This document shows positions 3,574 to 59,588 of a DNA stretch of 64,000 bases, piece after piece. The notes beneath the pieces were generated by a model. It was not told the origin of the DNA and did not search any database. It worked only from the letters and a program-made list of their open reading frames with translations. This DNA comes from Candidatus Poribacteria bacterium (lineage in GTDB: Bacteria > Poribacteria > WGA-4E > PCPOR2b), in NCBI GenBank assembly GCA_965215015.1, contig OZ244042.1:2137557-2201556 (forward strand), given 5' to 3'. The translations under genes were made by a program, and so were the position numbers. Positions within the stretch are counted from its first letter, which is position 1. Each line of letters begins with the position of its first letter.

Positions 3574-4920
3574 ATGCACGAAACACTGGATACCATGACA
3601 GCGGCCCCAACGCAGGGGCTCCTTGTTGGGGTAAAATTGAAAGGCGAGTTGCAGACCGATGCAGAAAGTTCACTCGAAGAATTAAGACGGCTTGCAGAAA
3701 CGGCGGGGATGGACGTGCTTGCCGAAATCATACAGCCGAAAGAAACGCCCGATCCCGCCTATTTTATCGGACGAGGAAAGTTAGAGGAATTGGAGGCGAT
3801 AATCAGTGAACTCAAAGTGGAGGCGGTAATTTTTGATAACGACCTCACACCGGCACAAACTCGTAATTTGGAAAAAGGGCTTGATGTCGTCGTCATTGAT
3901 CGAACAAGCCTGATTCTACAGATTTTCGCGCAACGTGCACAGACCAAAGCTGCCAAATTACAGGTAGACCTTGCCCAACTGCAATATGCGTTGCCGCGTT
4001 TGACGCGAATGTGGACACACCTCTCTCGACTTGGCACAGGTGCAGGCGGCACAGCAGGGGTGGGGGTCGGGCGCGCTGGGGGTGTAGTCCGTGGGCCGGG
4101 CGAAACCCAACTTCAGATTGACCGACGGTTGATTCACTCACAAATTGCGCGTGTAAAAAAAGCACTCCAGAAAGTTGAAAAGCATCGGCGCGTACAGCGG
4201 AAACAACGTCAGAAAATGATTAATATCTCGCTGGTCGGTTACACCAATGCAGGAAAATCAACCCTCTTTAACGCTTTGGCGAGCGAGAATCGACCCGCTG
4301 AAGATAGGCTGTTTGCGACACTAGATCCAACAACCCGCTTACTCGATTTGCCGGATAACCAACATGTCTTGTTGAGTGATACAGTCGGTTTTCTCAAAAA
4401 GCTGCCACATCATCTAGTAGCTGCATTCAAGGCAACGTTAGAGGAGGTTGTAGAGGCGGACCTGCTGCTCCATGTCGTTGATGTATCCCATCCCGAAGCG
4501 GAGAGTCAGATTGATGCTGTTGATGAGGTGCTTAAAGAGTTGGGGGCCTTTGAACGACCAACGCTCATGCTGTTCAATAAGATTGATTTACTGGAGGAGG
4601 AAGAATACCTCCGGCTATTCCAGAGTAAATATCCCGATAGCCTTGCAATATCGGCGCAGAATGGCACAGGATTGGAAGCACTAAAAGGTCTACTCGCTGA
4701 ACGCTTCTCAACTCAGGACGTAGATGTGGCGCTTGTGCTCTCCTATCAAGACGGAAAGGCACTAGATTATCTGTATAAGCATGGTGAAGTGTTCGATACG
4801 GACTATCAAGGTCAGTCAATCCGAGTCAAAGCGAAGCTTCCACAACGCTATTTGAAGGCTTTGGACCGCCTCACAACCAATTCGACCGCTGTCATACTAG
4901 ATTCAAAGATTAATGCGTAA
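3574..4920 (+). CDS. hflX: GTPase HflX
   Basis: It has HflX N-terminal domain signatures and G-motifs: GYTNAGKSTLFN (G1) and DTVGF (G3). The start is placed at ATG 3574, which has an AGGAG box 8 nt upstream; the six-frame ORF begins earlier at 3358. Confidence 0.8.
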   Translation: MHETLDTMTAAPTQGLLVGVKLKGELQTDAESSLEELRRLAETAGMDVLAEIIQPKETPDPAYFIGRGKLEELEAIISELKVEAVIFDNDLTPAQTRNLEKGLDVVVIDRTSLILQIFAQRAQTKAAKLQVDLAQLQYALPRLTRMWTHLSRLGTGAGGTAGVGVGRAGGVVRGPGETQLQIDRRLIHSQIARVKKALQKVEKHRRVQRKQRQKMINISLVGYTNAGKSTLFNALASENRPAEDRLFATLDPTTRLLDLPDNQHVLLSDTVGFLKKLPHHLVAAFKATLEEVVEADLLLHVVDVSHPEAESQIDAVDEVLKELGAFERPTLMLFNKIDLLEEEEYLRLFQSKYPDSLAISAQNGTGLEALKGLLAERFSTQDVDVALVLSYQDGKALDYLYKHGEVFDTDYQGQSIRVKAKLPQRYLKALDRLTTNSTAVILDSKINA

Positions 4921-4973
4921 ATCGAATCCTCGATTCGCTCGGGGGACTTAACCACATATCCCTAATCAATTGG

Positions 4974-46167: not shown

Positions 46168-48240
46168 TTGATGAAGGAATATCAGACGGAACAGATTCGG
46201 AATATCGGCATTATTGGGCATTCGGGAACAGGCAAGACTTCACTCATCGAAGCGATACTCTATAATGGGGGCGCAATCGAGCGAATGGGACAAGTTGATA
46301 ATGGGAGTTCAGTTTCAGATTATGCTCCAGATGAGATTGAACGCAAAATGACCATTAACTGTTCTGTGTGTGTCGCTGAGTGGAAAGGGCACAAGTTTAA
46401 CATTATTGATACGCCCGGTGCCGAGGATTTCTATGGAGATCTCGAGAGCGTACTGCGGGTAGTAGATGCCGTTATTGTAGTGATTGATGCAACAACCGGT
46501 GTTGAAGGGGGGACGGAGAAAGTATGGGAAGCGGCTGATAGATATGGACTCCCACGGATAATCTTTATCAACAAAATGGATAAAGAGAATGCCAGTTTTG
46601 AAAATGCGCTCGCGAGCGTTGATGAGATTCTTGAAGCCCAAACAACTGCGACACAAGTGCCAATTGGTAAAGAAACTGACTTTAAAGGCGTCATCGATCT
46701 CATCCAGATGGGAGCGTTCACAGAACCGCAGGATAATAGACCTTCAGCAAAATCAGATGTTCCTTCCGAACTTGAAGCGCAGGTGGAAGAGATGCGGGAG
46801 CAGCTTGTTGAGGTTGCAGCAGAAAGCGACGATGAGTTGATTGAAAAGTTCTTTGAAGGTGAACTCACCGACGAGGAAATTGGTACTGGACTTCGTACGG
46901 GATTATGTGCCAATCAGTTCGTACCCGTACTCTGTGGTGATGCCCTGCGAAATATTGGCGTTCAACCCCTGATGGACATAGTCACCAACTGCTGCCCATC
47001 TCCGGTTGATGCCAGACCGATTACAGCAATTGACGGCGAAACAACCTATGAGGCCTCCCCGGACTCGCCATTGGCGGCGTTGGTGTTTAAGACGTTGGCA
47101 GATCCGTTCGCTGGACGACTGAGCTTCTTCCGGGTTTATTCTGGCGTCTTAAATAGCGATTCTCAGGTTTACAACGCGACGAAAGGTGAGAATGAACGAA
47201 TCGGCAAGCTCGCATTCATGAATGGGAAAACCGCTACTAACGTGCTCCAAGTATCCGCAGGCGATATCGGAGTTGTTTCTAAACTGACGCTTGCACAAAC
47301 AGACGACACATTTTGCGACGTAGGAAGTTCGTTCCAACTTCCCGGCTGCGAATTCCCTAAGCCTGTTATCTCGTTCGCCATTAAGCCTGCACGAGAAGGG
47401 GATGATGAGAAACTGAGTTCGACCCTCTCCCGGATGATGGAAGAAGACCCATCATTCCAGATCGAACGGAATAGCACAACGAAACAGTTGCTGGTCTCCG
47501 GGCTTGGCGAGATACATCTCACCGTCATACGCAATCGAATGCGCGACAAGTTTGGCATCGAAACTGAAGTCGAAATACCGAAGGTCGCCTACCAGGAAAC
47601 GATTCGTGGTAGGGCGAACGGTATTCAAGCGAGGTATAAACGTCAGTCTGGCGGGCGCGGGCAATTCGGGGAGGTCTGGATAAACCTGTCCCCACTCCAA
47701 CGAGGTAGCGGATTTGAATTTGTCAACAAGATTGTGGGGGGCTCGATTCCGCGTAATTATATCCCCGCGGTTGAGAAAGGCATCCGTGAGTCGATGGCTC
47801 AAGGTCTGATTGCCGGGTATCCCTTCGTTGACGCTCAAGTGGAGCTCTACGACGGTAAGCATCACCCTGTTGATTCCTCTGATATGGCTTTTCAGATTGC
47901 TGGTTCTTTTGCGTTTCGAGACGCAGCAAACCAATCCAATCCAGTGCTGCTTGAGCCAATCATGAACGTCACAATCTCTGTTCCAGAACAGTTCATGGGG
48001 GATATTATCGGCGACCTCAATAGCAAACGGGGCCGAATCATGGGGGTTGAACAGGCGGGCAAACGGCAGGTCATTCAAGCGACCGTCCCGTTGGCAGAAA
48101 TGTTCCGGTATTCGATAGACCTTAAATCAATTACGAGTGCGCGGGGCAGCTTCACGATGGAGTTTTCAAATTACGAGGAGATGCCGGATGAACTAGCCCA
48201 AAAGGTAATTGCTGAAGCAAAATCAGAGGCGGAAGAGTAA
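46168..48240 (+). CDS. Elongation factor G paralog (EF-G2-like)
   Basis: GIIGHSGTGKTSL (G1), DTPG (G3) and NKMD (G4) are present, and the domain order is that of full-length EF-G. It is not in a str-operon context. Confidence 0.85.
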   Translation: MMKEYQTEQIRNIGIIGHSGTGKTSLIEAILYNGGAIERMGQVDNGSSVSDYAPDEIERKMTINCSVCVAEWKGHKFNIIDTPGAEDFYGDLESVLRVVDAVIVVIDATTGVEGGTEKVWEAADRYGLPRIIFINKMDKENASFENALASVDEILEAQTTATQVPIGKETDFKGVIDLIQMGAFTEPQDNRPSAKSDVPSELEAQVEEMREQLVEVAAESDDELIEKFFEGELTDEEIGTGLRTGLCANQFVPVLCGDALRNIGVQPLMDIVTNCCPSPVDARPITAIDGETTYEASPDSPLAALVFKTLADPFAGRLSFFRVYSGVLNSDSQVYNATKGENERIGKLAFMNGKTATNVLQVSAGDIGVVSKLTLAQTDDTFCDVGSSFQLPGCEFPKPVISFAIKPAREGDDEKLSSTLSRMMEEDPSFQIERNSTTKQLLVSGLGEIHLTVIRNRMRDKFGIETEVEIPKVAYQETIRGRANGIQARYKRQSGGRGQFGEVWINLSPLQRGSGFEFVNKIVGGSIPRNYIPAVEKGIRESMAQGLIAGYPFVDAQVELYDGKHHPVDSSDMAFQIAGSFAFRDAANQSNPVLLEPIMNVTISVPEQFMGDIIGDLNSKRGRIMGVEQAGKRQVIQATVPLAEMFRYSIDLKSITSARGSFTMEFSNYEEMPDELAQKVIAEAKSEAEE

Positions 48241-48330: not shown

Positions 48331-49038
48331 ATGGGCAGATATGCCTACTATTACAATCTTGCTAAAACTCATCTGGATCAAGGAGATTCTGGTCGTGCCC
48401 TCATAAACTTTACCTTAGCACAGCGACAGAATCCCAATCGTGTCGAGGCCTATTACGCTCGTGCTACGGTTCACCAGCTGAGAGGCAATCATGATCGCGC
48501 CAATGCAGATTTGACCACGGCACAGAACCTCACGAGAATTTCCTTTGCTGAGTTTGATTTAACGAAGGCCAACGAATTTGTAGAGAGCGATGCCGGATTA
48601 AGCCTTATAGAAAACCAGGACGCGAACCCTAGTGATATTCTTATAAGGAAACTCGGCGAGATTGCCTTTGCTAAATTTCTATATGAGCATGATAAGGCAT
48701 TCTTGAATGATGCCAATCAACTTCTAACATGGGATGATGTTTATACATCGGACAGACTGAATCTCCAGACTTGCGACGGCCAAACTGTTGATGTTAAGGC
48801 ATCCAAATTCCAAAGCATAGTGGTTCCATATAATAATAAACCAAGGGATTATTACGTCGGAGTTGGAATTTCAACGGATAAGACAATAGGTACAGTGGAG
48901 GGTTTTATTCATAGAGATGGACTAAAGCCCTCTGAGTCTAACATTCCCGATCCATGTCTTCAAAGAAAATTTGAATCACTTAAATGTATCGAAGACTTGC
49001 TTGAAATGATGCCTGAGGCAGAAAACGGTGCGAGCTAG
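48331..49038 (+). CDS. TPR-like N-terminus fused to the same roughly 170-aa module found at the RpoB C-terminus
   Basis: Residues from about 68 to the end align at roughly 80% identity with RpoB residues 1536-1706 (RISF.E.DL.KANEF...GEIAFAKFL...[16 protein letters not shown]...MPEAENGA). Confidence 0.55.
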   Translation: MGRYAYYYNLAKTHLDQGDSGRALINFTLAQRQNPNRVEAYYARATVHQLRGNHDRANADLTTAQNLTRISFAEFDLTKANEFVESDAGLSLIENQDANPSDILIRKLGEIAFAKFLYEHDKAFLNDANQLLTWDDVYTSDRLNLQTCDGQTVDVKASKFQSIVVPYNNKPRDYYVGVGISTDKTIGTVEGFIHRDGLKPSESNIPDPCLQRKFESLKCIEDLLEMMPEAENGAS

Positions 49039-49180
49039 GTCCCACGGGAGAATAATAAACAAATGTGCCCCCTATCCCCAATACCTGCCCTTGTGATGGT
49101 GGGTATGCACCCCATTAGAAACGGATAAGATCTCTCTCGTTCTTACCGAAAAAACTTTAGGTCTGTTCACGCATTACCTA

Positions 49181-52876: not shown

Positions 52877-54013
52877 TTAATCCTTGGAAAAGCTCTGATT
52901 CAAGGCATCTTTAATCTCTGTAATGACTTCTGTATCCGCTTCCATGTCTAAACGTGCTTGTAACGCTTTTCTTGCAGCCTTACCCCCAATTTGCCCTAAT
53001 GCCCATGCAGCATGGCCGCGGACCAAGGGCTCGCGATCGTTCAACGCTTTTTTGAGGGCAGGCACCGCAGCTCGATTTTTCCAATTGCCAAGCGCAACTG
53101 CAACATTTCGGAGAAAACCCCGTCGCTTCGCTCGCTTGACTGGACTGTTTCTAAAACGTCTGCTAAACTGTTCCTGCGTCATGTTAATCAATGAAAGCAG
53201 CGTAGGCGTGAAATTTCCCTGGCGTGGATAAAAGGCACGCTCTTTTGTCGGCACAGCTTTGCTGTTCCAAGGGCAAACTTCCTGACAGATGTCGCAACCG
53301 AAGATTAGGTTGTCCATCTGCGGACGGAGCCCTCGGGGGATGCTCCCCTTCAATTCAATGGTAAGGTAGGAAATACATAGCCGGGAATCGAGGATGTTCG
53401 GTGCTAGGATTGCGTCTGTAGGACATGCCTCAATACAGCGGGTGCACGTGCCGCAACTGCCACGAAGCAGCGGTGTGTCTGTGTCCAACTTGATACTGAC
53501 CAAGATACCCGCGAGAAAAAACCAAGAACCGGCTCGCCAGTTAATCACATTTGTATTTTTAGCAATCCATCCGATGCCCGCGCGTTCCGCGTACTCACGT
53601 TCAAGGACCGGGGCGGTATCTACATAAACTCTGGTTTTGACCTTTTCTTCAGCGGTTCTTTGGATAAATATCGCCAACCGATCTAATTTCGATCGGATAA
53701 GACTGTGGTAATCCGTTCCCCACGCATACCGAGAAATCTGTCCGCGCGATGGATCCGCCACAAGTGACTTAGGGGGGGCGAGCGTGTAGTAATTAATCGC
53801 CAACGCGATAATTGATTGGGCTTCGGGGAGGATTTGGCGTGGATCCCGCTTCAGCGGTAGATGCCTTTCTAGGTAACCCATCTCTCCGGCATAACCGTCT
53901 TTCAACCACTGTTCGTAGCGATCAATCGTCTGGCTTGGTTCAACTGGGATAATACCAGCCAATTCAAATCCAAGTTTTTGTGCCTGAACCTTTATCTGTT
54001 CTGTCAGATTCAT
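52877..54013 (-). CDS. queG: Epoxyqueuosine reductase QueG
   Basis: The 4Fe-4S motifs (CGTCTRCIEACP and CDICQEVCPWN) and the C-terminal HEAT-like repeats are present. Confidence 0.85.
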   Translation of the reverse strand: MNLTEQIKVQAQKLGFELAGIIPVEPSQTIDRYEQWLKDGYAGEMGYLERHLPLKRDPRQILPEAQSIIALAINYYTLAPPKSLVADPSRGQISRYAWGTDYHSLIRSKLDRLAIFIQRTAEEKVKTRVYVDTAPVLEREYAERAGIGWIAKNTNVINWRAGSWFFLAGILVSIKLDTDTPLLRGSCGTCTRCIEACPTDAILAPNILDSRLCISYLTIELKGSIPRGLRPQMDNLIFGCDICQEVCPWNSKAVPTKERAFYPRQGNFTPTLLSLINMTQEQFSRRFRNSPVKRAKRRGFLRNVAVALGNWKNRAAVPALKKALNDREPLVRGHAAWALGQIGGKAARKALQARLDMEADTEVITEIKDALNQSFSKD

Positions 54014-54160
54014 ACTTAGTCATGGGGGTGTCAAGCTGCCATTAGCAAAATAACACGATTTCTATAAAATATATAAAATGAAAGGGAGTTCATGAAAATC
54101 TTGCCGTTATCGTAGCAGCCATTTTTTCCAAAGTCAAAGAAATTATTCCAAAAAAAATAC

Positions 54161-54189
54161 TTGACATAAAACAATAATTATTATACAAT
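54161..54189 (+). promoter_or_regulatory. Sigma70 promoter: TTGACA, 17-nt spacer, TACAAT
   Basis: A consensus -35 and a near-consensus -10 lie about 85 nt upstream of the rpoB start. Confidence 0.45.
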
Positions 54190-54275
54190 ATCATGTTACG
54201 CCTGTTTTTCAGGAACAAAATTCAGAAACGCCCCTATCTTCCAAATCTCAAGAATCTCTAAGGTCAGGTGAAAGC

Positions 54276-57200
54276 ATGCCCCATCCCGTCAAATATGGCA
54301 AGCGTGAAAGATTATCTTTTGCAAAAATTCCGGAGATTATGAATCTCCCCGATCTCATCGAGGTTCAAAAATCCTCCTACGACGAATTTCTTCAACAAAA
54401 TATCCCCCCAGAAAAGCGTAAAGATAAAGGCTTACAAGCCGTTTTCAACGAAATCTTTCCAATCCCCGATTTCAGCGAAACTTCCGAACTTCAGTTCGTT
54501 AGTTATTCACTCGGTGCCCCTAAGTACGACATTAACGAATGCCAATCCCGTGGGTTCAATTATGCCCTGCCGGTGAAGGTTCGTGTCCAATTGGTTCTCA
54601 GAGAAAAAGATCAGGACACCGGTGAAAATCAGCTGATTGATATCAAGGAAAATGAAGTCTATATGGGCGAAATCCCCTTGATGACGGAAAACGGTACTTT
54701 CATCATCAACGGCTCTGAACGGGTGATTGTCAGCCAGCTACAACGATCTCCCGGTGCAACGTTTGGGGAAGATACCCACACCAGTGGACAGACACTCAAC
54801 ACTGCGAAGATTATTCCGTATCGAGGGGCGTGGATTGAATTTGAGTGCGACATCAAAGATCTGATTTATGTCCGGCTCGATCGACGAAAAAAAATGCTCG
54901 TAACTGTTCTGCTCCGGGCACTGGGTTGGGAAACCGATGAAACCATCCTCCATCTGTATGCCAAGACAGAGTGTGTTCAGCTCGATGATTCCCTGATTGG
55001 TCGGGTGACGGCTGCTCCTGTTGAATATTCTGTCCCTGAAGATATCTTGCTTGAAGCAAATACAAACACAGAGCGTGTCAATCTAGCTGACGCTCCAATT
55101 GGTCGGTTGATAGCTACTCCTGTCGAATACAAGCACCCTGATACTGGAAAAGAGGTCTTGCTTGAAGCAAATACGAAATTGACAGCAGAGCAGATTTCGG
55201 ATTTGCTTCAAGCAGATATCAGCGAAGTTGTAGTTGAAGCAAATACAAACACAGAGCGTGTCAATCTAGCTGACGCTCCAATTGGTCGGTTGATAGCTAC
55301 TCCTGTCGAATACAAACATCCTGATACTGGAAAAGAGGTCTTGCTTGAAGCAAATACGAAATTGACAGCAGAGCAGATTTCGGATTTGCTTCAAGCAGAT
55401 ATCAGCGAAGTTGAAGTTATTCCTGTCGAATACAAATTACTCGAAGCAAATGTGGAGTTGACAGAAGAGGCAATAGACGATTTGCTTGAGGCAGGTATCA
55501 GCGAAGTTGAAGTTTTAGACGCAGATGATGCAGAAGAAATCCGTTTTCTGCGAAATACGCTCAATCGTGATCTCCAATCGGAGTATAAACTGCCGTTAAT
55601 TTTTAAAGTGCCATCAGACCTCCAAAGTGATTTGACAGATAATGCACCGGTGTCAGAGACATGGCGTCAACAGTTTAAAGACAGTGGCACCTCTCTGTCC
55701 TCTACCGCGATCATGCAGGTAAAAACAGCAGATCGCCGTTGGCGTGTATTAAACAAGAATAATAGAGAGAACTTTACCATTGAGAAAATAGGGGATACCC
55801 TCAACGTCTATCGGGGAAGTATCCAAGACTTGGCGGTGGTTGAAATCTTTCGTAAGCTGCAACCGGGCGACCCGCCTACAATCGAGAGCGCGCACAACCG
55901 ATTTGAAAAGCTATTTTTCGATTCAGTGCGCTACGATCTCGCAAAGGTAGGGCGGTATAAGCTTAATGAAAAGCTTGGCAACCTTTCCCTGTATCGGAAC
56001 GAGGACGAAGTAGTAGATGAAACGATTCGTGTCCTGCGTGCGGCGGACATCGCCGCGGTTCTCCAATACCTGATACAGGTGCAGAATGGAAACGGAGAGA
56101 TGGACGATATCGATCACCTCGGTAATCGTCGAGTTCGCGCTGTCGGAGAACTGTTGCAGAACCAGGTGCGGATGGGGATGCTGCGAGTTACCCGGGCGAC
56201 GCGAGAGCGGTTGACAGTTCAAGACTTGGAAAGTGTAACCCCTGCCGACTTGATTAATCCTAAACCCTTGACCGCTGCGATCAAAGATTTCTTCGGATCG
56301 AGTCAACTTTCCCAATTCATGCAGCAAGCCAATCCGCTAGACGAGTTAACCCATAAACGCCGCTTGAGTGCATTGGGCCCCGGCGGACTGCATCGGGAAC
56401 GTGCAACCTTTGAGGTACGGGATGTCCATCGTACTCACTACGGACGAGTCTGCCCGATTGAGACACCTGAAGGCCCTTCGGTGGGGTTAATTGTTTCCTT
56501 AAGTACCTACGCGCGGGTCAATGCCTACGGCTTTATGGAAACACCTTATCGCAAGGTGTCTGAGGGCAAAGCAATCAATCGGATCGATTATTTGTCCGCC
56601 GATAAAGAAGATACGTTCACCATTGCACAGGCACATGCTGTCCTCGATGAGGACGGAACGATGGAAGGCGACCTGATGGTTACACGGCAAAAGGACGATT
56701 TTCCCCGGAAGTTAGCACCAGAAATCGATTACATTGATGTCTCCCCGAAACAAATCGTTGGTGTTTCTGCCGCGCTCATTCCCTTCCTTGAGCATAACGA
56801 TGCGAACCGTGCATTGATGGGGAGTAACATGCAGAGACAAGCTGTACCGCTCATCCGGCCAGAAGCTCCGTTGATTGGGACTGGTATGGAACATAAAGCT
56901 GCTCGCGATTCTGGGGCAGTTGTACTGGCAAAGCGGGATGGCATTGCAGAAAGCGTCTCTGCATCTGAAATCATTATCCGCACGGATGATGCCTTCCGGA
57001 TTGCTCATGGAGAGCAGTCGTTCAGCGAAATGGGCTACGATGTTTATCGCTTGACCACCTTCAAGCGATCCAACAGTGGGACCAGCCTCCACCAACGCCC
57101 ATGTATAAATGTCGGAGAACAGATAAAAGCCGGTCAAGTGATTGCCGATGGCACCTCAACAGAGAATGGAGAGCTGGCCCTCGGCAGCAATATCCTAATC

Positions 57201-59396
57201 GCATTCATGTCTTGGGAAGGATATAATTATGAGGATGCTATCCTCCTCAACGAGTCACTCATCGCTGACGATACTTACACCTCTATTCACATCGAAGAGT
57301 TTGAGGTAGAAGCGCGTGATACGAAGATGGGATCCGAAGAGATTACTCGAGATATTCCAAACGTTTCTGAGGAAGCTTTGGCGCAGTTAGATGAGGAGGG
57401 GATTATTCGCATCGGTTCAATTGTCCGTCCGGGAAGCATTCTTGTGGGCAAGGTGACCCCGAAGGGAGAGAGTGACCTCGGCCCCGAAGAAAAACTGCTG
57501 CGTGCAATCTTTGGTGAGAAAGTCGGCGAAGTGCGCGACGCTTCCAAGTATGTCAAGCCCGGCACCGAGGGGGTTGTTGTTGATGTCAAGGTCTTCTCTC
57601 GGAAAGAGCGGGACGGGGACCGTCAAACGGAATTACGGGAGATCGCGAAAAAGAAAGAGGTGGAGAAGGAATGGGAGGCGAAATGTGGATTAATTAACCA
57701 ACGCAAGGACGACGAGATCCGCAACATACTGCTCGGTCAAAAACTCGCTAGCAGTGTTTCTAACGACACAGAACTCATTGCTAGGCGGGGAAAGATTGTA
57801 ACAGAAGAGTTGCTGGAAACGGGCGTTCCGTTGGAACAATTTCATGTTAGGGATGCTGAGGCAATGGAGCTCATCCAACGCATTCAACAGTTGGCGCAGG
57901 GGCGTATTGATGCCCTGACGGAAGAAAAGAAAGCACAAATTGAGAAAATCGAGAAGGGCGACGAGTTGAAGCCGGGGCTTCTCAAACTGGTGAAAGTTTA
58001 TGTAGCGATCCGTCGAAAGATCTCTGTCGGCGATAAAATGTCCGGGAGACACGGCAATAAGGGAGTCGTTTCAAAGATTCTCCCACAAGAGGATATGCCC
58101 TATCTGGAAGACGGTACGCCAATCCAAATCATCATGAATCCGTTGGGGGTTCCGGGGCGCATGAATGCGGGACAGATTCTGGAAACGCATTTGGGGAGGG
58201 CGGCAAAGGAACTTGGATTATATATTACCACGCCGGTCTTTGATGGGGCGGAGGACCCGGAAATTCGTAAGCTCTTACGAGAGGCAGGGCTGCCCGAACA
58301 CGGAAAAGCGAAGTTGTATGATGGTCGAACCGGGGAACCCTTTGCCCAAGAAGTGACTGTCGGATATACTTACATTCTCAAGCTCAATCACTTGGTAGAT
58401 AATAAAATCCACGCCCGCAGCACAGGACCCTATTCGTTGGTGACTCAGCAACCGCTCGGTGGCAAGGCACAGCAAGGTGGCCAACGTCTCGGTGAAATGG
58501 AGGTGTGGGCATTGGAAGCATATGGGGCTGCCTACACCCTTCAAGAATTACTCACAATTAAATCCGATGATGTCATTGGAAGGAGCAAAATCTACGAAGC
58601 GATTGTCAAAGGAGAAAATGCCCCCGCGCCCGGCACTCCAGAGTCATTTAACGTTCTCGTGAAGGAATTACAAAGCCTTTGTCTAGATGTAGACCTAGAA
58701 CAGACATCTGATGCCCCAGATACTTTTGATGCCCCAGATACTTTTGATCTTACGCCTGAGAAACAGAACCTGCAGACATCTAATGCCCCAGATACTTTTG
58801 ACCTTGCCCCTGAGAAACAGAACCTGCAGACATCTGATGCCCCAGATACTTTTGATCTTGCCCCTGAGAAACAGGACCCCACGAGAATTTCCTTTACTGA
58901 GATTGATTTAAAGAAGGCCAACGAATTTGCAGAGAGCGATGCCAGATCAAACCTTATAGAAAACGAGAACGCGAACCGTGAGTATATTCGTATAGGGAAA
59001 CTCGGTGAGATTGCCTTTGCTAAATTTCTAGATAAGCATGATAAGGCATTCTTGAATGACGCCAATCAACTTCTAACATGGGATGATGTTTATACATTGG
59101 ACAGACTGAATCTCCAGACTTGCGACGGTCAAACCGTTGATGTTAAGGCATCCACATACCAAAGCATATTGGTTCCATGTAATAATGAATCCAAAGATTA
59201 TTACGTCGGGGTTAAAATTTCACTGGATAGGAATAGGAAAATAGGTACAGTGAAGGGTTTTATTGATAGAGATGGACTAAAGCCATTTACTCACCCTGAC
59301 ATTGATAAGCCATGTCTTCAAGGAGAATTTGGATCACTTGAATGTATCGAAGCCTTGCTTGAAATGATGCCTGAGGCAGAAAACGGCGCGAACTAG
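54276..59396 (+). CDS. rpoB: DNA-directed RNA polymerase subunit beta carrying lineage-specific BBM2 repeats, a C-terminal acidic repeat linker and an extra C-terminal module
   Basis: Canonical RpoB blocks are present: the rifampicin region, [17 protein letters not shown], and [28 protein letters not shown]. The canonical end ...[21 protein letters not shown] is followed in frame by about 230 additional residues. Confidence 0.9.
55054..55420 (+). repeat. Perfect 183-bp tandem duplication inside rpoB, encoding two BBM2-like units
   Basis: 55054-55236 and 55237-55419 are nearly identical. Each encodes [59 protein letters not shown]. Confidence 0.7.
58704..58880 (+). repeat. Three 54-bp in-frame repeats at the 3' end of rpoB encoding an acidic 18-aa linker unit ([18 protein letters not shown])
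   Basis: Read directly from the sequence. Confidence 0.7.
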
Positions 59397-59476
59397 GGCC
59401 CACGAGAAAATAATAAACAAATATGCCCCCTATCCCCAATACTTGCCCTTGTGATGGTGGGTATGCACCCCATTAG
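58881..59476 (+). other. Low-GC duplicated cassette: C-terminal module of RpoB plus about 80 bp of 3' flank, paralogous to 48533-49120
   Basis: Nucleotide identity is about 88% across roughly 590 bp and includes the post-stop sequence aataataaacaaat.tgccccctatccccaatac.tgcccttgtgatggtgggtatgcaccccattaga. Confidence 0.65.
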
Positions 59477-59588
59477 ATTGGGAGTCGGAACATGATGTAT
59501 GAAGTGTGGAAGAGGAGAAGTCCGAAAAAATAGAAGTGCTTCTCTTCTAATCTTCTAATCTTCTAATCGTTAATAAGGGAGAATAGCC

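Follow-up and report, generated by a model that had tools for sequence, protein, structure and literature searches.

Why should the beta subunit of a bacterial RNA polymerase end in a domain that also ends an unrelated TPR protein, encoded on the same strand 10 kb upstream? In the 64,000-nt stretch of Candidatus Poribacteria DNA analysed here (the window), rpoB is a single unbroken ORF on the plus strand (54276-59396) in the ORF list, and its translation gives a product of 1706 aa and 190.6 kDa, which bears out the size of ~190 kDa proposed earlier. The encoded 190-kDa beta subunit closes with an acidic linker of ~57 aa followed by a 174-aa domain, here called X; the upstream gene is called TPR-X and the fusion RpoB-X.

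Anatomy of the rpoB 3' end

The conserved body of the beta subunit occupies positions 54276-58700 (plus strand; residues 1-1475, up to ...LCLDVDLE) by ORF translation and Pfam. All six Pfam RpoB domains are present, the last of them, Rpb2_7, ending at residue 1475, and these Rpb2-type domains are the only ones found in RpoB, with no secretion or trafficking domain among them. A first reading of the letters alone (the sequence-only reading) had the frame running in phase past a normal end at ...DLEQ. The frame does run on to 59396, but that end was set too early: in seven relatives (L002, L004, L008, L012, P0082, P0083 and P0087, four of them syntenic, the other three being close RpoB C-termini) the native protein stops 21 aa further, at ...LAPENWESEHxx, and carries no X tail.

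The extra DNA can be delimited to the base. A cassette of 607 nt (58871-59477) matches, in blastn, a source segment at 48522-49119 (plus strand) that is its exact counterpart and takes in the X domain with its stop codon, then 81 nt of TPR-X 3'UTR. The coding part of the cassette (58871-59396, plus strand) specifies RpoB residues 1533-1706 and brings its own stop codon (59394-59396). The homology of the two copies extends 81 nt beyond both stop codons, so that the imported 3'UTR (59397-59477, plus strand) lies between the new and old rpoB stops; DNA identity is ~88% for the coding part, rising to 93% for the 3'UTR (92.7%, aligned to 49039-49119). The cassette sits exactly between CCTGAGAA and TTGGGAG of the native rpoB end, two sequences that in L002 adjoin without interruption (CCTGAGAA followed directly by TTGGGAG); without the insertion, the rpoB 3' sequence would read CCTGAGAATTGGGAG. 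The insertion is in frame, 8 codons ahead of the native stop, and the orphaned last 8 codons and stop of rpoB, TTGGGAGTCGGAACATGATGTATGA (..WESEHDV* when aligned to the relatives' rpoB ends), persist untranslated at 59478-59502 (plus strand). Directly 3' of rpoB lies rpoC as a separate gene (59589-63833, plus strand), and the spacer between the rpoB stop and rpoC has been lengthened by the insertion, from 77 nt in L002 to 192 nt here.

At the protein level, the last 174 aa of RpoB (58872-59393) align with residues 65-235 of ORF 48331-49038 at 127 identical positions (73%, E 2e-87), and all indels between the tail and the resident copy are in frame. The homology of a ~170-aa domain to the C-terminal two-thirds of that ORF, as first proposed, thus stands, at an identity of 73% and not ~80%. 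The rpoB insertion shows no target-site duplication, loss of target bases or inverted repeats, the empty rpoB site and the cassette borders at TPR-X have no similarity by eye, and none of six flanking genes scanned encodes a transposase- or integrase-type Pfam domain. Neither the cassette nor X occurs a third time in the window, and Rfam and tRNA scans of it were empty; RNA folding of the cassette 3'UTR is not significant (z 0.63), and at both cassette ends plus-strand terminators and promoters do not exceed shuffle expectation.

Between the body and X lies an amplified junction (58701-58870, plus strand), which encodes the linker (pI ~4) as three tandem 54-nt units on the plus strand, at 58701-58772 (with an extra internal 18-nt duplication at 58728-58745), 58773-58826 and 58827-58870. 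Each unit joins the acidic tail native to RpoB, of which L002 has a single copy, to the initial 10 nt of the cassette (ACAGAACCTG). The units are bounded by the short direct repeat AACAGA, and the repeats are 83-93% identical to one another. The three 18-aa acidic repeats noted earlier are therefore real, but because the native RpoB end lies 21 aa beyond ...DLEQ they are no new element: they are native tail and 10 nt of cassette, tandemly amplified.

The resident gene and the distribution of the fusion

TPR-X (48331-49038, plus strand) encodes 235 aa, with a TPR unit at residues 1-64, in which Pfam places TPR matches at residues 5-57, and X at residues 65-235. A full five-domain EF-G paralog (46168-48240, plus strand; identified by Pfam, synteny and the dS matrix) ends 90 nt upstream and served us as the species-tree yardstick for X alleles. 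The neighbours of TPR-X and RpoB-X are EF-G, smc, queG and rpoC, and smc, downstream of TPR-X, is convergent. Synteny is conserved, and every relative carries TPR-X at this one site. The cassette came from a gene family whose resident member is TPR-X. Both the TPR-like N-terminus beside an EF-G paralog and the presence of one module on both RpoB and a 64-aa TPR unit, carriers unrelated to each other, were thus correctly read from the letters.

RpoB-X is a singleton, a fusion of unproven function in one genome and one assembly. It was absent from every protein or contig collection searched; no RpoB-sized carrier of X was found in 5.8 billion 90% clusters and 1.84 billion 50% representatives, and the tail is absent even from a relative 98% identical in DNA. 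What is seen is a presence/absence polymorphism of the X-coding insert at a fixed site in a conserved gene. The exact 1706-aa RpoB, also when begun at two alternative starts, is missing from a 15-billion-protein collection that does contain RpoC and TPR-X from the same 5.94-Mb contig. Literature on RpoB-nuclease fusions yielded no precedent, and a beta subunit with a nuclease-fold tail is an architecture found in no database or literature searched, in keeping with the earlier remark that it is non-standard for RpoB. The tail search in related genomes that had been suggested found no relative with the fusion, so it is not a widespread conserved RpoB domain.

Fold, relatives and evolution of the X domain

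By structure prediction, X has a restriction-endonuclease (PD-(D/E)xK) fold with an alpha-beta-beta-beta-alpha-beta core. The AlphaFold2 model of the tail, computed with a 50-sequence alignment, reached a pLDDT of 92.8 (36 for a single-sequence run); in Foldseek its best PDB match was NaeI, and 49 phage proteins matched at E<=1e-3, some of them named restriction endonucleases. The structure prediction proposed for the tail thus gave a nuclease fold by model and structural search, while a PDB profile search by sequence found nothing, and Pfam, NCBIfam, PADLOC and PHROGs hold no family for X, giving only a sub-threshold match to DUF1822. The closest kin of X are small type II restriction endonucleases and other PD-(D/E)xK nucleases (NaeI, the DpnI catalytic domain, PvuII, EcoRV and NhoI, as well as the homing endonuclease I-Ssp6803I and the Hjc resolvases), whose helix-Glu ... 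Asp ... Asp-x-Lys motif recurs across the wider X family. X differs from stand-alone restriction enzymes in being fused here to TPR or RpoB, and from restriction enzymes generally in having no sequence-level match to PDB, Pfam, NCBIfam, PADLOC or PHROG families. Unlike these nucleases, the TPR-X clade and the RpoB copy also carry Asn at the PD position and have no methylase partner.

Within X, E46 and D90-V-K92 are invariant, and the residue at the PD position is Asn80 in the TPR-X clade, including the RpoB tail. Asn occupies this position in 16/16 TPR-X-clade sequences and Asp in 30/34 distant ones; the methylase-linked P0204 and P0205 read ..MDFET... The change from Asp to Asn may have cost the TPR-X clade its catalysis, but E46, D90 and K92 are intact, and another invariant residue, D72, could compensate. 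Relatives of X at 30-40% identity are encoded beside, and mostly overlapping, DNA methylase genes; in the distant members L006, L007, L014/L016, L017 and L020-L022 these are overlapping N6/N4 methylase genes or neighbouring C5 methylase genes. No cognate methyltransferase gene of the kind that marks a type II restriction-modification system adjoins TPR-X or RpoB-X, and a crude motif test found no methylase motif, (D/N/S)PP(Y/F/W) or PCQ, in frames of at least 120 aa in the 64-kb window. A scan of JGI metagenomes returned only methylase-linked distant homologs of X, and a scan of viral contigs returned no relative. The C-terminal domain of P0012 looked GIY-YIG-like by eye, a resemblance set aside as it had no Pfam or PDB support.

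The alleles of X are incongruent with the tree of the flanking EF-G gene. Between L004 and L010, dS is 0.079 for EF-G and 0.37 for X, while between the window and L004 it is 0.52 for EF-G and 0.155 for X. The X tract is mosaic and hyperdivergent against L002, which is otherwise 98-100% identical, and dN/dS among X alleles is 0.3-1.0, compared with 0.07-0.17 in neighbouring genes. These patterns suggest that X alleles evolve fast and move between lineages. However, every allele is a member of a single family, and divergence is seen in the TPR part too. A diversity-generating-retroelement origin of the divergence was rejected, as the substitutions show no adenine bias.

The RpoB tail itself keeps 61/64 of the positions that are invariant in 13 other members and differs from P0001 at 44/107 variable positions (Fisher p 4e-8). 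Against the resident TPR-X it has dS ~0.11, dN ~0.14 and omega ~1.2, while background dS against L002 is 0.03-0.05, reaching 0.12 in queG. The tail, which L002 lacks, is thus more diverged from TPR-X than an origin later than the split from L002 would lead one to expect; another allele may therefore have been the donor, and the signal of constraint may partly pre-date the insertion. The open frame alone is not significant, because 29% of simulated copies with 39 random substitutions also stay open.

TPR-X offers a way into an undescribed family of apparently domesticated type II restriction enzymes, which have lost the methylase partner and exchanged Asp for Asn, share a conserved operon with an EF-G paralog and have alleles that still pass between lineages.

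Origin of the fusion

The history that we think probable is a clean in-frame duplicative insertion of the 3' part of a TPR-X-family gene into rpoB, followed by expansion of the junction, with X attenuated and the extension tolerated. The insertion may have come about through microhomology-mediated illegitimate recombination or template switching, the donor being the copy on the same strand 10 kb upstream or a closely related allele, and the junction repeats would have arisen afterwards by replication slippage. Judged by its residues and relatives, X in the TPR-X clade would descend from a type II restriction enzyme and have been domesticated as a DNA-binding domain with attenuated cleavage, and such attenuation would explain why X on every RNA polymerase molecule is not lethal. 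The domain has presumably stayed folded on RpoB under selection, and we lean towards a tolerated passenger that must not misfold rather than a new property of RNA polymerase.

Large additions to this end of the protein are known, as in the RpoB-RpoC (beta-beta') fusion of Helicobacter. Natural beta-beta' fusions have also been reported from Wolinella and Candidatus Adlerbacteria (PMC11515920); there too the beta subunit bears a large C-terminal extension and keeps its essential function, and because the beta C-terminus is surface-exposed, as these fusions show, the extension seen here is presumably tolerated. They differ in that the partner is the next polymerase subunit and the fusion lineage-wide, whereas RpoB-X joins beta to an unrelated nuclease-fold domain, leaves rpoC separate and is strain-specific. 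If RpoB-X is merely a tolerated accident, it is a curiosity of one uncultivated genome. It offers a natural test of cargo tolerance at the beta C-terminus and a dated, base-precise case of domain accretion on an essential gene, with a clean insertion and then linker expansion; should reads confirm the junction and the protein be made, nature would have supplied an RNA polymerase with a restriction-endonuclease-fold domain tethered to its beta subunit by a flexible acidic linker.

Could the fused domain instead be doing something for its carrier? Adaptive neofunctionalisation would give RNA polymerase a new selected activity, such as tethering to specific DNA sites, sensing of foreign DNA, or co-transcriptional cutting or nicking, the triplicated linker having been selected for reach. 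The core of the tail is conserved as in bona fide members, its changes fall on variable positions and its indels are in frame only; the repeats have moreover diverged, from which it follows that the fusion persisted for some time. However, core conservation could equally reflect selection against misfolding in an essential protein, or a functional donor allele, an overall omega of ~1.2 is also what relaxed constraint gives, and the fusion is a singleton missing from so close a relative, so that we regard adaptation as unlikely. Somewhat more doubtful still is a selfish nuclease cassette, in which X would spread itself in the manner of a homing endonuclease as an in-frame C-terminal extension, the rpoB copy being a new homing or ectopic insertion. 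The incongruent, mosaic alleles, the many phage-encoded structural relatives and the polymorphic presence of the insert in a conserved essential gene would fit such a cassette and recall inteins and homing endonuclease genes, which likewise place an endonuclease-fold insert in frame in such genes. Yet there is only one ectopic copy in all collections searched, TPR-X stays at its syntenic site across all the relatives, Asn replaces the PD aspartate, the two sets of borders are dissimilar and there is no intron or intein context: RpoB and the other genes scanned have no Hint/intein Pfam match and the insert does not recur in the collections searched. Unlike an intein, X has no splicing domain and is kept in the mature protein as a terminal extension, and this single known occurrence has an altered catalytic residue. 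That X is a horizontally mobile, restriction-derived cassette capturing host-gene C-termini in frame (so that RNA polymerase would have acquired its own domain for sequence-specific DNA recognition or nicking), or a selected polymerase-tethered defence or targeting module, is a thin prospect; either would be a new route by which a selfish or defence nuclease becomes part of the transcription machinery itself.

The other explanations fare worse. An assembly or sequencing artefact, with an rpoB-X junction that exists in no cell, would agree with the single assembly and with the absence of the exact RpoB from the protein collection, but it is very improbable: native rpoB lies on both flanks with base precision, so that only two exact switch points could produce a chimera, the repeats at the junction have accumulated differences in place, and the tail, ~12% different from the resident copy and with in-frame indels of its own, is therefore no collapse or mis-join of two loci. 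The sequence-only reading likened the locus to the C-terminal cassette swapping of polymorphic toxins. As in Rhs/CdiA loci, a nuclease-fold C-terminal module with its own stop sits on two carriers, a displaced native end is orphaned downstream, and a hypervariable module appears to recombine between lineages; the module does behave as a recombining cassette would. That RpoB and the TPR protein are alternative carriers in a toxin system is, by contrast, barely credible: neither has a secretion, Rhs/YD, PAAR, LXG or FHA domain, no candidate immunity gene follows (rpoC follows the tail, and convergent smc follows TPR-X), PADLOC, Pfam and NCBIfam give no toxin matches, all alleles are of one family and not diverse toxins, the catalytic Asp is replaced, the insertion is a one-off local event and the orphan is only 8 codons long. 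A conserved lineage-specific accessory domain of the beta subunit, also raised earlier, is refuted by the seven relatives without the tail and the lack of RpoB-sized carriers in the large cluster searches, and we give it next to no weight, even though RpoB in this clade already bears lineage-specific repeat insertions. The published survey lists only internal insertions of the BEAN (BBM2) type, at five sites and conserved within lineages (PMC11515920); X resembles these as an extra RpoB domain with tandem-repeat dynamics, and differs in its C-terminal position, its other fold and its absence from relatives.

In the body of the gene, rpoB also contains a 183-nt duplicated insertion at 55051-55418, and its closest named RpoB fragments are from Candidatus Poribacteria (79-82%).

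The rpoB-X fusion and its junctions

The rpoB gene is a single open reading frame (54276-59396; 1706 aa, 190.6 kDa) in whose product all six Pfam RpoB domains were found, the final one stopping at residue 1475. Its last 174 residues (58872-59393) align with residues 65-235 of the resident ORF at 48331-49038 (127/174 = 73% identity, E = 2e-87), which bears out the sequence-only reading that RpoB is extended C-terminally by a module shared with this ORF, though at lower protein identity than the roughly 80% it gave. That reading was also right that the ORF has a TPR-like N-terminus beside an EF-G paralogue, as a TPR unit lies at residues 5-57 and a complete EF-G gene ends 90 nt upstream. We call this ORF TPR-X, the shared module X and the copy ending RpoB the tail. 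At the DNA level, identity between the copies is 87.5% over the coding part and 92.7% over the next 82 nt, and thus the homology blocks (48522-49119 and 58871-59477) extend 81 nt past the stop codon in both copies.

The insertion was delimited by alignment to the closest relative, L002 (GCA_964348125.1), whose flanking DNA is 97-99% identical. There the sequence ..GCCCCTGAGAA|TTGGGAGTCGGAACATGATCTATGA is uninterrupted, whereas extra DNA separates its two halves in the window. In four syntenic relatives native RpoB ends ...LEQTSD(A/D)PDT(F/Y)DLAPENWESEH(D/E)(L/I)*, 21 residues beyond the ...DLEQ previously taken for its normal end. The inserted cassette (58871-59477, ACAGGACCCCACGAGAATTTCC ... 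CATTAGA) matches TPR-X starting at codon 64 (ACAGAACCTCACGAG...) and reaching 81 nt beyond the stop codon; the orphaned native rpoB 3' end (TTGGGAGTCGGAACATGATGTATGA, 59478-59502) follows it directly and is now untranslated. Zero bases of the rpoB target site were lost and zero duplicated. The three acidic repeats (58701-58870) exist as first described, but are not a separate new element: each unit combines the acidic stretch of native RpoB, CAGACATCTGATGCCCCAGATACTTTTGAYCTTGCCCCTGAGAA, with the cassette's opening 10 nt, ACAGAACCTG, and the repeats therefore postdate the insertion. The units, now 83-93% identical to one another and with an extra 18-nt internal duplication in unit 1, are delimited by the short direct repeat AACAGA, found in the native sequence (GAACAGACA) and at the new junction (GAAACAGAA), and we infer that they arose by replication slippage. 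The insertion was base-precise, in frame and duplicative, with a stop codon and 3'UTR supplied by the cassette itself; the junction later expanded in tandem. No target-site duplication or inverted repeats were found at the insertion, nor any recombinase among the flanking genes scanned by Pfam. Further downstream, the rpoB-rpoC spacer carries an 8-nt tandem repeat (59543-59568, TCTTCTAA x3.2), of which L002 has one unit fewer.

Distribution of the fusion

The gene order EF-G / TPR-X / smc(-) / queG(-) / rpoB / rpoC is kept in all relatives recovered (L001-L005, L008-L012), in all of which the region upstream of rpoB (52877-54275 in the window) holds divergently transcribed queG, and smc, rather than the usual rplJ-rplL. 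Searching related genomes for the tail, as had been proposed, showed that relatives end without it: it is absent from all four whose contigs reach the rpoB end and from three further close RpoB C-terminal fragments (P0082, P0083 and P0087). Among 5.8 billion 90% clusters, the tail as query retrieved 13 proteins (208-298 aa) and a family profile 21 (128-298 aa), none of them an RpoB-X protein, and the 66 matches of the family HMM among 1.84 billion 50% representatives, nearly all 150-220 aa, included no RpoB; the sole long one is a repeat protein of low complexity (P0070, 791 aa, E = 1.7e-4). Nor did pattern scans and tblastn with the X family alignment A3 find RpoB-X in GTDB species genomes, JGI metagenomes or IMG/VR viral contigs. 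A survey of RNAP beta architecture describes just internal BEAN insertions and beta-beta' fusions (PMC11515920), and our targeted literature searches found no RpoB-nuclease fusion. The fusion is not widespread and remains a singleton from one uncultivated genome; it is a new architectural variant, RpoB joined to a restriction-endonuclease-fold domain, made by an ordinary mutational process.

An exact look-up found neither the 1706-aa RpoB nor a variant starting at Met22 in a 15-billion-protein collection that holds RpoC and TPR-X from the same 5.94-Mb contig, and the tail search of the 90% clusters did not return the window's own RpoB. The absence could result from a start codon called elsewhere, from annotation as a pseudogene or from clustering with a representative that lacks the tail.

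The X family and its restriction-enzyme kin

None of the profile libraries recognized X, and a PDB sequence search gave no match. Structure prediction, also proposed earlier, gave a confident restriction-endonuclease-fold model (AlphaFold2, 50-sequence alignment; pLDDT 92.8, pTM 0.89), for which Foldseek ranked NaeI first in the PDB and returned 49 phage proteins at E<=1e-3 (best TM-score 0.74), some of which bear the name restriction endonuclease. The classical signature is present in the family alignment as GKLGE (helix Glu), D-F-x-T (the PD aspartate) and (I/V)-D-(I/V)-K-T (D-x-K). Relatives at 30-40% identity adjoin DNA methylase genes, mostly overlapping them: an N6_N4 methylase ORF is overlapped in a Poribacteria MAG (L006), in L017 and in L020-L022 (one of which also has a C5 methylase), while in Streptococcus infantis (L007) and metagenomic contigs L014 and L016 the neighbours are Eco57I-type and C5 methylases. 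Given this signature and gene context, the wider X family is one of small type II restriction endonucleases.

In the TPR-X clade the PD position differs: Asn (..RLNLQT..) occupies it in 16 of 16 members, among them the RpoB tail and two sequences that lack TPR (P0016 and P0203), whereas 30 of the 34 distant members, methylase-linked P0204 and P0205 among them, have Asp. No methylase neighbour was seen beside clade members whose context was examined, and a motif scan found no methylase catalytic motif in any open frame of at least 120 aa in the 64-kb window. Judged from these sequences, the clade would be a domesticated, cleavage-attenuated derivative that keeps DNA recognition; because E46, D90 and K92 are intact, the attenuation can only be suggested. 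Other forms include the shortened P0206 and P0207, and P0012 (L013 5424-6320), an X without TPR that lies away from the syntenic site, close to a DDE transposase, and is fused to an unrecognized C-terminal domain of 110 aa whose GIY-YIG-like motif (GLYQIYG..LLYIGKT) lacks Pfam or PDB support. The closest TPR-less X, P0016 (46% identity; L018 527-6507, L019), is a stand-alone protein encoded third in a row, behind the genes for an FRG/TPR protein of 525 aa and a WD40-type protein of 1062-1283 aa, the latter matching PADLOC HEAT-ARM_XIII (1e-60); it may lie in a conflict-system context.

X also evolves unlike its neighbours. Its dN/dS is 0.3-1.0 versus 0.07-0.17 in neighbouring genes, and across L002, L004, L008, L010 and L012 the X part of TPR-X (48500-49120) has a history decoupled from the flanking genes, with low dS to distant lineages and high divergence from the closest. 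Between L004 and L010, EF-G dS is 0.079 and X dS 0.37; between the window and L004 the values are 0.52 and 0.155, and the 3' half of X is just 88-93% identical to that of L002 amid a 98-100% background. This decoupling therefore indicates that X alleles are exchanged between lineages by recombination, and the donor family is an undescribed, fast-evolving, horizontally exchanged one of apparently domesticated restriction enzymes. L002 carries ~380 nt of extra DNA between TPR-X and smc (4586-4970), missing in the window, with a short ORF start (MKTYKFKPT..) and a ..RPRFKK.. stretch, by eye reminiscent of a TnpB/IS605-type remnant.

Age of the tail and its proposed origin and tolerance

The tail falls with alleles of the window/L002/L004 type (dS 0.106 to the window's TPR-X, 0.113 to L002 and 0.144 to L004, versus 0.44-0.53 to L010 and L012) and shares the window/L002-type 3'UTR, which L004 lacks. 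It has 39 unique substitutions, and at 27 more sites it departs from the resident copy and matches L002 or L004; it is therefore no recent duplicate of TPR-X as that gene now stands. A diversity-generating-retroelement (DGR) origin of its substitutions was rejected, as the adenine bias is not present. Its overall omega is ~1.2, yet its changes spare the core: of 64 positions invariant in 13 other members three differ, versus 44 of the 107 that vary (Fisher p = 4e-8), which is within the range of bona fide members (0-4 changes at invariant positions, except 10 in P0012). Every tail indel is a multiple of three; the open frame by itself says little, as 29% of simulated copies remain open. Background dS between the window and L002 is 0.03-0.05 (queG 0.12), and the tail's divergence is somewhat above that expected for a post-split origin. 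Two explanations would fit: a donor that was another allele of the recombining pool, or an insertion soon after the L002 split. Some of the constraint signal could therefore be older than the insertion.

The sequences show that X was inserted into rpoB, that the junction then expanded, and that the strain-specific cargo is a nuclease fold with an altered catalytic residue; together with the steps proposed below, this makes up an account that we consider likely as a whole. Insertion would have occurred by microhomology-mediated illegitimate recombination or template switching, with either TPR-X, which lies 10.35 kb upstream in the same orientation, or a closely related allele as donor. The beta C-terminus may accept such cargo, by analogy with natural beta-beta' fusions (PMC11515920); the acidic linker of ~57 aa (pI about 4) would hold X away from the enzyme, the Asp to Asn state would render it non-toxic, and selection would have at least maintained its folding. 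Within this account a tolerated passenger is more likely than a new RNAP function. An adaptive, RNAP-tethered DNA-binding or nuclease activity would fit the conserved core and the persistence of the tail, yet seems unlikely for a singleton with omega ~1.2.

A selfish, homing-type cassette is somewhat less probable still: X alleles are mobile and X resembles I-Ssp6803I and has phage relatives, but there is just one ectopic copy, the home site keeps its synteny, Asn occupies the catalytic position, and the borders of the empty rpoB site and the TPR-X cassette are dissimilar by eye. That the fusion is an assembly artefact is very improbable, for the copy has diverged by 12% and has indels of its own, and exact native rpoB sequence flanks it on either side. 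From the cassette behaviour first proposed, recombination of X alleles between lineages survives, but swapping of the polymorphic-toxin or Rhs type is contradicted by our tests and scarcely credible; the other early suggestion, a lineage-specific RNAP accessory domain, has still less claim, since the relatives examined lack the tail. The fusion is of interest as a natural experiment on RNA polymerase and a lead into the X family.

Elsewhere in rpoB, an N-terminal lineage-specific insertion contains a 183-nt (61-aa) tandem duplication (55051-55418, 98% identity) with a third copy at 55437-55514 (78%). L002 has an assembly gap (a run of N) exactly at this repeat, and copy number seems variable in relatives, RpoB being 1373 aa in L008 and 1488 aa in L004. 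Judged by position, the repeat is probably of BEAN/BBM2 type.
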